The notes below the pieces were generated by a model that worked only from the letters and a program-made list of their open reading frames with translations, ran no database searches and was not told where the DNA came from. Shown here piece by piece: positions 38,745 to 59,414 of a stretch of DNA of 64,000 nt; the stretch's first letter is position 1, and every line of letters begins with the position of its first letter. The position numbers were made by a program, and so were the translations under genes. The DNA is from Octopus vulgaris (Eukaryota). The stretch spans positions 166,966,001-167,030,000 of the forward strand of contig OX597816.1 in NCBI GenBank assembly GCA_951406725.2, in the 5' to 3' direction.

Positions 38745-38986
38745 TGTAACCTTGTCAATGGATGTTGACTGTCCGTTATTGGAGCTGCGTTCTTTAACGG
38801 ACAGAGACAACATCCATTGACAATGTTGTAAAAGCAACAAAAATTTTGGAAGAAAAAATATAAATAATGAGTGGAAATCGAACCGGTAAGGCATTAAGAC
38901 AACATGATTCTCCCCAGACACAACATAATTTGCTTCAACACACGAATTCACATAAAGAATCTTGCAAACCAGATACAAAAACGAAA
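38745..38986 (+). mobile_element. PLE-type 3' fragment with 5' hairpin and degenerate U3-A8 HHR (38813-38850)
   Basis: TCCA-TTGACAA-t-GTTGt aaaa gCAAC-(A)AAA-ATTT-TGGA. The downstream sequence is homologous to 12065-12245 and 59085-59279. Confidence 0.6.
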
Positions 38987-39277
38987 TCTATGTGACATAA
39001 TGTATAAAACGTACATCTATCATATAGGATGAAAACAATCACATTTATAATAGAAATATTAAAATTACTAAGTCTCTATAAAAGAGATTACGGCAGCGTT
39101 ACTGGAAATTAATTGTTATCGCCATATTAATATGGCATTCATATAGATATAAGAATAATCGCTGCCGCTGGTCAGCTCCATGAGGCCACCGCCTTAAGAT
39201 AGCTATTGATACACGATCTGTATCCAATATAACCTTCGAACAAGGGAGGTCAGCCGCTTCACACTGCCAGTCCGACA

Positions 39278-39319
39278 GCTACAGACGCATTTCGGGGTAT
39301 TGCCCCTTGTCAATGTAGC
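39278..39319 (-). ncRNA. Minimal hammerhead variant (U3-A8) at the tip of a 137-nt hairpin (39231-39367)
   Basis: GCTACA-TTGACAA-GGGG caata CCCC-GAAA-TGCG-TC-TGTAGC, with outer stem AACCTTCGAACA / TGTTCGAAGGTT. Confidence 0.7.
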
Positions 39320-40142
39320 GCAGTCAGACCCCGCAGGTGTCGCCCCTGACGTCTCTGTTCGAAGGTTTCTATTTACCTAGTTGAGTGTAGCACGCTGGAA
39401 TGACGTATCTCAGCCGCTATTTTCACAATATCTAAGATATCACTAAGAAGATACTATACAAGTAGGTATCTGCGGATGCGGCGTAATGAGAGAGTTCTGT
39501 TCATAAAATTAAGGGATTGCAGCAGTTCTCTTTATGAAATTATAGGATGTAACTGCCGTTATTTCCGGCCAATTAATTTTCATCTTTTTTTAAAAGCATA
39601 AACGGCATATTTAACCCCAACAAAACTGTTCAGTAAGCGCGTTAAAGCGCCTAACAGCTATAAAACTATTTGATGTAGTTAGAATGTTATTATATAACGT
39701 TATTGTATCATCCGATCGTTTCTCTTTTTGATATACGACAATCAAAAAATAATATTCGTTATCTATCGGAAGAAATATAACATGGCTGAACATATTACAC
39801 GACTTTATGATTTTCAGTAGTTAAATAATCCGAAAATATTTTAGCAAATATTTTGATTTATGACAACAAAAAAGCTATCAATTCTGAAAATTTGTTCAAC
39901 GTTTTTGAAACAGTTTATTTATTTTCTCTAACAGGTGGTGGTCACGGCTATTATTACTCTGATTCTGATGTTTGTTAAGTTTATAGATTTTAACAATATT
40001 AGTTCACAGTAACTATGTGTATTTTGATAAAACTAGTATGCAAAAATCTTTATAGATTTCTGAAAGAATGAAATTGTTGATTAAATCGTCCTTTATATTT
40101 ATTTCCAGTCGACCCAACACAGTCTTAAACAATTATCTGTTA

Positions 40143-40507
40143 TCTTTTATTCGTTTCTGTCATTGGACTGCGGTCATGTTGGGGCACCACCTTGAATTTT
40201 TAATCGAATGAATCGACCCCAGTACTTTTTTTAAAGCGTGGTACTTAATATATCGGTATCTTTTGTCGAACCGCTAAGTCACGGGGTATGTAAACCCACC
40301 AAGATCGGTTGTCAAGGGTGGTGGGAAACAAACACACACATATATAGGACGAGCTTCTTTCAGTTTCCATTTACCAAATCCATTCAAGGCTTTGGTCGAT
40401 CCGAGAATGTAGCAGGAGACATTTCCTCGAGGAGTAACGCAGTGGGATTGAGCCTGGAACCATGCGATTCGGAAACGAGCTCCTTACCACAGAACCACGC
40501 CTGTACC
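40143..40507 (-). mobile_element. SINE family B (diverged)
   Basis: Reverse family-B consensus. Confidence 0.7.
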
Positions 40508-56264: not shown

Positions 56265-56297
56265 TTTCTGACGAAGAGCTCCGCTCGAAACGTTAAA
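56265..56297 (+). ncRNA. Minimal hammerhead ribozyme in PLE-type 3' end (~56222-56400) between TA tracts
   Basis: TTT-CTGACGA-A-GAGC tcc GCTC-GAAA-CG-TT-AAA, with palindromic ACGT stem III. Confidence 0.65.
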
Positions 56298-58602
56298 TCC
56301 ACCTTCTTTCTTTCCTTTCCTGAAAGTCCAATAACACTATACTTGTTCCACGTCCTCGTGTTGTTGCGTCTTCTCTTTGTTTTTTAATGTTTGGATTAAC
56401 TATATATATGAATATATGGTACAGGACGTCACCAATGGTGCAAATAACATGAAATACGTAAACATCGAGACAAAAATGGAAAACAGAACAAGTAAATCCA
56501 AGAATGGACCCTTTATCAGTTGTCGGCTGTCTATCTACTCCTCATTTCGAACGGGCTTCTTTCTTTCAGTTTCCATCTACCAAATCCACTCACAAGGATT
56601 TGGTCGGCCCGAGGCAAAAGTAGAAGACACTTGCCCAAGGTGCTACACAGTGAGATTGAACCCAGAACCATGTGGTACAGAAACAATCTTCTTACCACAC
56701 AGCCTGAATAACATTCTTCCTTCCACATTTAAAGCCTTTTGCCAAATTTTGAAATCATTATGACTAGAATATTCTAGAAATATGAAATACATATCAAACA
56801 TTATTTCATTTCCTCGTTAATTATTTTAAAACTTTTAAAACTATTTTTTATCTTTCCTCTATTTTTTTAAAAATTTTTATTTCTGCATTTTGTCTTGTGT
56901 TTTAAAAAAAAATTTCTGATCTTTCTCAATTATTCTTGGATTCTCGTCTTATTTCGTTCTTTCTTTTTAATGATCTGCCTTCTCTGTCAATCTCTCATTC
57001 CACCCGTGTGTGTGTGTGTGTGTGTGTGTGTGTGTGTGTGTGTGTGTGTGTGTGTGTGTGTGTGTGTGTGTGTGTGTGTGTGTGTGCGCGCGCGTGCGTG
57101 TGTGTGTATTGCGCTCCTCGTTCTCTGTTTAGCTATGTCTGAAGGAATGTTTGCTTTTAGCATCCATAACTTGATCCCAATAATCTGATTTCTGGTAATA
57201 AGCTTTAACTCCCCGAGGAGAAATAAATATTGTTAAATAAACATTGAATATAAATACATACATACATACATACATATATATATATATACACAAACATGTA
57301 TGTATATATATGTATTATATATATATATATATATATATATATATATATATATATATATATATAAATATTAATATATATAATATTAATATATACAGATATA
57401 TACAATCATACATATATATATGCATATGTATGTATATATATATATATATATATATAAATATTATATATATATAGATATATACAATCATACATACATGTAT
57501 ATAAGCTTGTGTATGTATTTCTATGTATATATATATATATATATATATATATATATATATATATACACACATATCATCATCATCATCATTTAACGTCCGC
57601 CTTCCATGCTGGCATGAGTATATATATTACATACACACTCACAGCTCACAGACACACATACATATATATACATACATACATACATACATACATACGCCAA
57701 CTTCCATAAATATTACACATGCACATACTAAATGGTCTAAATTCATAGGGAACAATTTAACAATGAAATACCTACACATACACACATTCACACAGGCACA
57801 TACATACATACATATATATATATATATATATATATATATATATATATATATATATATATATATATATGTATGTATGTATGTATGTATGTATGTATATATA
57901 TATATATATATATATATATATACATATACATACATACATATATATATACATACATATATATATATATATATACACATACATACATATATGCATACATATA
58001 TATATATACACACACAAATATATGTATATATATCTACAAATATATGTGTGATATATATATATATATATATATATATATATATATATATATATATATATAT
58101 ATATATCCTGCACATATGGAGCTATGCCCGACCAGTCTGTACAAGTTGTTGGCCATATTTATTAGCAACCGTATAACAGTTTTCATGCACAAATAATTAC
58201 TTATGCATATCATATAGCCGACACCTAAACACATACACATACACACACACACACGGATATAATACACATGTATGTGCATAGAAAAAATTATAAGTATTTA
58301 CATATGCACATTAACATGACAATGTGTATATATATATATGTATGATATAAAATATTTTTATAAATAATGAGATAGAATCTAGTCTACAGTCCCAGATTAA
58401 TGCGCATATTGTATACATTTATACTACGGCACTGCGGTTGGAAAGCAAACTTCTTATCACGTAGCCATGCCTGCGCCAGATATGAGGACAATGTTCCAAA
58501 TATTTTATTAATGTCGTTATTAACAGCTTATTTCTTATTTTTACGAGAAGCCAAAGCGGTAGTTTGAAGGAGTGGAGACTCAATATTATGCCTACCTGTC
58601 GT

Positions 58603-58912
58603 GGCACTCTGTCGATGAGGATTCCAGTTGATACGATCAATGGAACAGCCTGCTCGTGAAATTAACGTGTAAGTGGCTGAGCACTCCACAGACACGTGTA
58701 CCTTTAACGTAGTGCTCGGGGGGAGATTAAGCGTGACACAGAATGTGACAAGGTTAGCGCTTTGAAATACAAGTACTACTCGTTTTTGTCAGCTGAGTGG
58801 ATCAACGTCATATAAAAAGTCTCTTGCTCATGGACATTACGCGCCGCCGAGAATCGATCTCATGACCTTTCAATCGTGAGCCGATTACCCCTAACCACTA
58901 TGCCCCGTGCCT
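58603..58912 (-). mobile_element. tRNA-derived SINE family E; related pieces at 51630-51810 and 25325-25480
   Basis: Minus-strand head GGCACGGGGCATAGTGGTTAGGG...GATCGATTCTC and shared CCAGTTGATACGATCAA(C/T)GGAACAGCCTGCTCGTGAAATTAA. Confidence 0.65.
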
Positions 58913-59084
58913 TATGACACACGCACGCACGCATATCTCTGTTGTTCCTTACACTGCATAGAGAAGTGGGAGGGGCAGTATAAAAGTGGGAAGCAGAGTT
59001 AACACAAGAGATTAACGCGAAAGAGAGAAATGCCGAAATTGAGAAGTGGTAGGGGGAGGGTAAAGATGATAAAAGTTACGTAGT

Positions 59085-59414
59085 TTCGTTTTTGGATTTG
59101 GTTTGCAAGATTCTTTATGTGAGTTCGTGTGTTGAAGCATATTCTGTTGTGTCTGGGGAGAGTCATTTTCTTTTTGTGCCTTATAATATAACACACTCAC
59201 CCGTAAAATTTCCACTTATTTCTTATTTTTATTTTCCTAAAATTTTCGTTGCGTCTTGCAACCTTTTCAATAGTCTTGAGTCAAGACTATTGAAAAGGTT
59301 GCAAGACGCAACGAAAATTTTGGGAAAATAAAAATAAGAAATAAGTGGAAATTTTACCGGTATGTGTGTTAAATTATAAGGCACAAAAAGAAAATGTCTC
59401 TCCCCAGACAACAG
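59085..59414. mobile_element. Fold-back PLE-type fragment, palindrome centred at 59280, with U3-A8 HHR-like motif in each arm
   Basis: CTA-TTGAAAA-G-GTTGC aagac GCAAC-GAAA-AT-TT-T(A/G)G, with arms ~59144-59279 / 59281-59414. Confidence 0.72.

Follow-up and report, generated by a model that had tools for sequence, protein, structure and literature searches.

Hammerhead motifs with a U3-A8 core pair in three repeat families of the Octopus vulgaris genome

Minimal hammerhead motifs are known from Penelope-like retroelements. Some 1,300 with a U3-A8 pair were located in the Penelope-like elements of Schistosoma by means of a descriptor made for this purpose (Cervera and De la Pena, 2014, PMC4209133), and natural covariation from C3-G8 to U3-A8 has been described (Perreault et al., 2011, PMC3088659). 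The canonical metazoan type I build consists of a helix I of 6 bp, a helix II of 4 bp and a short palindromic helix III (PMC4209133). Retrozymes without long terminal repeats (non-LTR retrozymes) are defined as tandem non-coding units of about 170–400 nt with a G+C content under 45% (PMC7229834). Here we consider a stretch of 64,000 nt from Octopus vulgaris (contig OX597816.1, positions 166,966,001–167,030,000, forward strand; the window), in which an initial annotation had marked five hammerhead motifs whose cores read TTGACAA or TTGAAAA in place of CTGANGA.

All five cores are present as annotated, and they belong to three repeat families. Named by the window position of U3, the motifs are 39313 (family A), 43223 (family B) and 59290, 12079 and 38817 (family C). 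Family A has 330 exact-flank U3 matches in the 2.8-Gb, 227-contig assembly, from which all genome-wide counts are taken, and A8 is found in 100 of the 100 matches listed. Family B has 3,370 matches, with U3-A8 in 99 of 100 listed. Young family C has 1,787 matches; those listed comprise 93 U3-A8, six C3-A8 and one U3-C8, with no G8 among the 100. Here and below, shares of A8, C8 and G8 are counted among the matches listed for a family (usually 100), not among all matches. By its distribution among copies, U3-A8 is to be taken as the inherited family state of A, B and young C, and not as decay. Two of the families (B and C) are Penelope-like 3′ repeats, and one (A) is a retrozyme-like tandem repeat. 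The reading we favour, with a probability of roughly 0.7, is that the motifs stem from hammerhead-shaped RNAs of three amplified retroelement families, whose master elements have a U3-A8 core and likely cleave their own transcripts in dimeric form.

Sequences downstream of the motifs are unrelated between families: in 500 shuffles the observed score is reached 131, 405 and 183 times for A against B, A against C and B against C, respectively. The three unrelated sequence contexts of the annotation are therefore real. Since a family's copies go back to a single ancestor, the motifs represent three events, not five. By its downstream sequence 38817 is related to family C, from which it has diverged (none of 500 shuffles reaches the score). 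It could be argued that every copy was inserted as a C3-G8 ribozyme and decayed later through two separate transitions, as C-to-T and G-to-A changes are common and several window copies are damaged elsewhere. This has next to no probability; it is refuted by the family counts, since U3-A8 prevails in each family or subfamily that holds a window copy. Nor do the counts point to a C3-G8 consensus with U3 and A8 arising separately, an outcome the annotation had named as fatal to its proposal. Genome-wide, no C3-G8 copy of A was found among the non-U3 matches of this family (two in one search, seven in another), all of which keep A8.

The family A unit is 362–364 nt in length, with 42.9% G+C and a longest frame of 65 amino acids (aa). 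Dimers and trimers are found elsewhere in the genome among the exact-flank matches; the single unit of the window has no tandem partner there. The hammerhead is of canonical type I build (helix I 6 bp, helix II 4 bp, helix III short and palindromic), the core is U3-A8 and not C3-G8, and position 7 varies between C and A. Stem I has an internal loop and loop 2 has 5 nt, which may resemble the loop 1–loop 2 contact of Schistosoma. To judge by its sequence, family A fits the non-LTR retrozyme as defined in PMC7229834. Folding of monomers and dimers gave the expected dimer for one copy only and is no evidence of activity. Parts of the family are covered by contigs from four runs presumed to be RNA; these give no strand, ends or circles. 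As for an autonomous Penelope partner, no frame is tied to the repeat in 30 loci, with scattered matches in L028 and L013 only.

Family B is associated with a protein. In locus L082 its motif is 646 nt downstream of a 631-aa frame on the same strand, which matches the reverse transcriptase (RT) domain RVT_1 (E 1.6e-8) and, weakly and under the curated cut-off, GIY-YIG (E 0.0024). The frame has a CX2-5CxxC linker before GIY-YIG, a feature of the Neptune clade of Penelope-like elements (PMC8557442), of which an insertion bias for (TA)n and RT phylogeny are further marks; C and the fourth family described below, D, carry such a linker too, and B is a candidate member at most. The main form of the B motif has G10.1-C11.1 and a 4-bp stem II without an extra base between positions 9 and 10.1, a base that one B subfamily does have. 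A 3′-splice-site-like AG ends the 5′ strand of stem I in B (window 43215–43222), and a 3′-splice-site-like sequence is found about 20 nt upstream of the D core (L195:1470–1490), where many D copies begin; that these are splice sites is our presumption. For Drosophila Penelope, an intron that ends at stem I has been described (PMC4209133).

Longer copies of family C have a Penelope-type endonuclease 663–753 nt upstream of the motif, and blastp gave no alignment between it and the family B protein. Family C sequence is present on both strands in 15 of 30 loci, and such an inverted arrangement is known for Penelope-like elements (PMC8557442). The 38817 copy is from a small diverged subfamily. Its core is inherited, because U3-A8 stands in 9 of the 12 listed rows that share its stem I; G8 stands in none.

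A loop search for older C copies gave 128 matches, and the 100 listed comprise 43 U3-G8, 42 U3-A8, six C3-G8, four C3-A8 and five others (counted by eye). Clustering on the sequence downstream of the core yields a G8 group (10 U-G, four C-G, one A-G), an A8 group (69 U-A, four others) and a U-A pair; it kept 90 of 97 copies, seven having been dropped beforehand as outliers, the 38817 copy among them. Median divergence is 7.6% for G8 copies vs 6.2% for A8 copies (P=0.04). The pattern is that of a C master element with a U-G wobble that spread. The wobble may be either a step towards U-A or a lapse from it, since old diagnostic bases are combined with U3-A8 in the 38817 subfamily and in L317/L338. 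Since the U3-G8 subfamily amplified, a Watson-Crick 3-8 pair is not strictly required. One U3-G8 example, from Saccoglossus, is in the supplement alignment of PMC4209133. A C3-G8 ancestral subfamily of C was also considered and rejected: the C3-G8 copies do not cluster, and C3 is about equally frequent on A8 (4/48) and G8 (6/50) backgrounds, as decay predicts.

Family D carries a G3-C8 core. It has 6,807 G3 matches, with C8 in 96 of 100 listed. Its non-G3 matches number 206; C8 is kept in 87 of the 100 listed, and none of those listed has C3-G8. An older, much decayed D subfamily, which differs in position 7, loop 2 and stem III, has G3-C8 in 16 of 24 copies. The copies of this family number in the thousands, and G3-C8 is their natural state. 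The motif is 958–1,001 nt downstream of a GIY-YIG frame (E 4.2e-5) on the same strand; the C-terminal part of an RT with a YVDD motif was read by eye, with no Pfam RT match. The D endonuclease is 45–50% identical to that of C, and stems I and II of the C and D motifs differ through paired changes. The G3-C8 core is also found in contigs from runs labelled as three organisms (X15, X16 and X17; two studies), one of which may be the source species. A G3-C17 pair is avoided in family D by its U17; for a G3-C8 mutant, higher activity is noted with G17 than with C17 (PMC3884650). In the part of the literature covered, G3-C8 was found only as laboratory mutants. A3-U8 was rejected as a fourth family state, the candidates being decayed G3-C8 copies (2/24 in the old D subfamily; in L311 the inverted partner is G3-C8). 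Old C3-G8 motifs whose stems resemble those of C and D are seen in L288, L295, L297, L300, L305, L307 and L314, near position 1502 or 1527. They are a possible outgroup of C and D; an endonuclease of the C/D type was not found in those loci.

A wider proposal, tentative and given somewhat less than an even chance, is that one Penelope-like lineage has held the 3-8 pair in three states, G3-C8 (D), U3-A8 (C) and the U3-G8 wobble subfamily, that G3-C8 is an unreported natural active core, and that A is a U3-A8 retrozyme missed by standard descriptors.

Pairing at 3-8 is a property shared across families. Searched with a hammerhead descriptor left open at positions 3 and 8, the window has three U-A motifs at a score of at least 8 vs 0.10 per block-wise dinucleotide shuffle (30 shuffles). 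In an unbiased 1 Mb sample (100 evenly placed 10-kb stretches) all seven strict hits are Watson-Crick at 3-8, vs 0.12 hits per shuffle; three are C-G, three U-A (all family A) and one G-C (family D), and families whose 3/8 state cannot pair were absent from this sample. Pair states are U-A in A, B and C, G-C in D and C-G in other families, and one older C subfamily tolerates U-G. What selection on master elements likely favours is that 3 and 8 pair, not the identity of the pair. The family forms of B, C and D have the core N3-UGA-N7-N8-A with 3/8 paired, GAAA and a U-H cleavage site, and their stem III is self-complementary over 4–6 nt from 15.1 to 16.1. Families C and D both have G10.1-C11.1 and a base between positions 9 and 10.1. 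In B, C and D the same strand carries a GIY-YIG frame (recognised in C by likeness to D), and the motif lies 0.65–1.0 kb downstream of it. (TA)n flanks are found in 32/48 copies of A, 54/63 of B (within 150 nt, vs 13.5% of random places for this family) and 64/85 of D, and in only 25/76 of C, vs 14–21% at random places.

The annotation had taken U3-A8 as a compensatory swap from C3-G8, and the double change as a sign of selection on structure and not of random decay. A paired and inherited family state is borne out, but a C3-G8 ancestor is shown for none of A, B and C, and the existence of U3-G8 means that the two changes were not bound to arise jointly and that the pair is not strictly kept.

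It should be asked whether the motif is constrained at all. Drift under AT-biased mutation might have fixed U3 and A8 in succession in the master elements, with cutting slow or dispensable. This we regard as unlikely, although several points speak for it: the U3-G8 subfamily amplified, stem II of family B is weak and its position 17 is A, in vitro cleavage of minimal Penelope hammerheads is poor (PMC4209133), and cleavage is unneeded for insertion in vitro (PMC11167929). Yet G3-C8 needs two transversions from C-G or U-A, and it persists in old and young D while position 7 and loop 2 change. The remaining core and the palindrome are kept as well, and the lack of unpairable families in the 1 Mb sample also speaks against weak constraint.

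Several results weigh against the reading we favour, or parts of it. The number of independent 3-8 switch events is small. In the older C matches 43 of the 50 listed G8 copies are U3-G8, and in an unselected sample older diagnostic bases are present in 13/13 G8 copies vs 3/13 A8 copies (Fisher P=1e-4). In the predicted fold of B, U3 can pair with A17, which may be compared with the inhibitory C3-G17 pair discussed in PMC3884650. The DNA downstream of the C and D motifs shows no significant likeness (445/500 shuffles reach the score), and because of this the kinship of C and D is drawn from protein and motif only. Pairwise mutagenesis found that the G:C swap alone rescued the 3-8 pair, all other double mutants having low activity (PMC9901934). 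Lastly, hammerhead mutants were without effect on insertion by the Anolis Penelope element in vitro (PMC11167929).

If the master elements do cut their transcripts, a transcript through two tandem repeats would bring two motifs together, and the palindromic stem III halves could pair (PMC4209133, PMC6765202). The 3-8 pair would then form and the RNA would be cut after position 17. The cut would free the element RNA or, for A, a 364-nt unit that could circularise and could be copied in trans by a Penelope RT. The fold may instead be kept for binding by the protein of the element, or for another step such as splicing or packaging. Cutting of the Anolis Penelope hammerhead occurred only when protein was present, and its cut site showed no ends of RNA-seq reads (PMC11167929). 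The AG of B stem I and the similar sequence upstream of the D core might also suit a role in splicing. Such a role without self-cleavage seems quite improbable; the 3-8 pair and the NUH site belong to the catalytic fold and are kept in four families, and family A has the full canonical architecture.

The copies in the window itself (Table 1) are mostly dead fragments, and most are damaged or unpaired. In 39313, stem I has 6 bp followed by an internal loop and a further helix, and stem II has 4 bp; stem III is near-palindromic, with one change relative to the family form, and the predicted cut is between 39284 and 39283. In 59290, stem II has 5 bp, stem I has 3 bp and one extra base follows A9. 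Stem II is damaged in 12079, which has a score of 6 only with the open descriptor. The 43223 motif has a 3-bp stem I, a 4-bp stem II with one mismatch (G10.2 to A), a palindromic stem III and A17; the repeat around it lies between microsatellites and carries a short piece in inverted orientation at its 5′ side. Both 43223 and 38817 are damaged copies, which the open descriptor missed and which were read by eye and by family alignment. In 38817, stem I has C-G where U-A stands otherwise, and GAAA is mutated as the annotation had it, by a change of G12 to A, so that this motif is predicted to be inactive. The core common to B, C and D is broken here and, by the extra A, in the D copy 38652, which is 85% identical to a young D copy and lies 165 nt away from the 38817 motif. 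No RT or GIY-YIG frame is found beside the hammerhead copies of the window, and Rfam gave no hammerhead family among the best 150 of 235 matches at E<=1.

Table 1. Hammerhead motifs and associated repeats in the window
Feature	Positions	Strand	Remarks
Family A type I hammerhead motif	39269..39330	-	Core TTGACAA, U3 39313, A8 39308
Family A single unit, 337 nt of 362-364 bp monomer	39047..39382	-	97.9% identical to L084 monomer
Family B minimal hammerhead motif	43220..43257	+	Core TTGAAAA, U3 43223
5′-truncated 3′ repeat of family B Penelope-like element	43052..43345 (ends approximate)	+	Lies between microsatellites
Family C minimal hammerhead motif	59287..59323	+	Core TTGAAAA, U3 59290
Inverted partner of family C 59290 motif	59237..59273	-	U3 59270; absent from initial annotation
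Family C motif, stem II damaged	12076..12112	+	Core TTGAAAA, U3 12079
Motif of small diverged C subfamily	38813..38850	+	Core TTGACAA, U3 38817, C7
Truncated inverted arm of 38817 copy	38752..38776	-	Same core, half of stem II; absent from initial annotation
Decayed family D copy	38495..38660	-	G3 38652, G3-C8 core with extra A; absent from initial annotation

The open descriptor also found the inverted partner 59270 and a canonical C3-G8 minimal hammerhead of a common repeat at window 56264–56298 (+; position 56268). In the 1 Mb sample, CCGACGA (U4 to C) stands in place of CTGACGA in many copies of this repeat, which may be a subfamily state.

The window has other repeats. The 3′ part of a third Penelope-like element (29717–31455) is inside a large inverted repeat (26775–34370); it has a GIY-YIG-like frame without a Pfam match, in two inverted copies 99% alike. 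The 7.7 kb around it yielded no well-formed hammerhead. A near-perfect inverted repeat at 8445–9986 has (TAA)n on both sides of a perfect hairpin at its centre (9164–9268) and looks like another truncated, inverted retroelement insertion. Mariner-like transposase fragments were read by eye at 55439–56112 (-). A dispersed repeat of 160–223 bp occurs in short tandems at 743–1223, 15664–16068, 62207–62763 and other places, in at least 12–16 copies. Just upstream of the window is a single frame of 678 aa (L253:6911–8944, -), which by eye only has the look of a host protein of beta-lactamase fold (serine hydrolase).

If the proposal of one lineage with three pair states is correct, these elements would provide a series of natural alleles for the study of compensatory evolution within the active site of a ribozyme. 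If G3-C8 cuts, whole families escape hammerhead searches restricted to C-G or U-A, with about 6,800 matches in this genome. The U3-G8 subfamily bears on the question of whether Penelope elements need hammerhead cleavage at all, and the natural G-C, U-A and U-G forms in related elements allow a direct comparison.

The annotation supposed that motifs of this kind are overlooked by CTGANGA-based searches. They are indeed hammerhead motifs with U3-A8, but natural U3-A8 is already in print (PMC4209133, PMC3088659). U3-A8 is thus known, and the window adds a new host for a published variant. Natural U3-A8 as in A, B and C is described by Perreault et al. (PMC3088659), in whose section 8 it is the sole variant named for this pair. 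The elements of PMC4209133, including Cercyon of Schistosoma mansoni, share with B, C and D a type I motif in a flanking repeat behind RT and GIY-YIG, and have U3-A8 families, whereas D is G3-C8. Also shared are the extra base between 9 and 10.1, G10.1-C11.1, the palindromic stem III, single truncated copies and opposite-strand pairs. The host and the element lineages are different. The alignment of 56 motifs in PMC4209133 is mostly C3-G8, with two U3-A8, one U3-G8 and no G3-C8.

Family A resembles the metazoan non-LTR retrozymes (PMC7229834; Li et al. 2026, bioRxiv 10.64898/2026.07.22.740005) in its tandem units of 362–364 bp, its 43% G+C, its lack of a long frame and its 6-bp/4-bp type I hammerhead. 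It differs from them in its U3-A8 core, and it is described here from DNA. No mention of UUGA or covariation was found in the available texts of these two works. The nearest likeness to family D is with engineered C3G/G8C hammerheads, which have the same pair and show partial or strong rescue in vitro (PMC11167929, PMC9901934); in a Penelope hammerhead the double change partly restores cleavage (PMC11167929). Those are laboratory mutants, whereas the G3-C8 of family D is natural.

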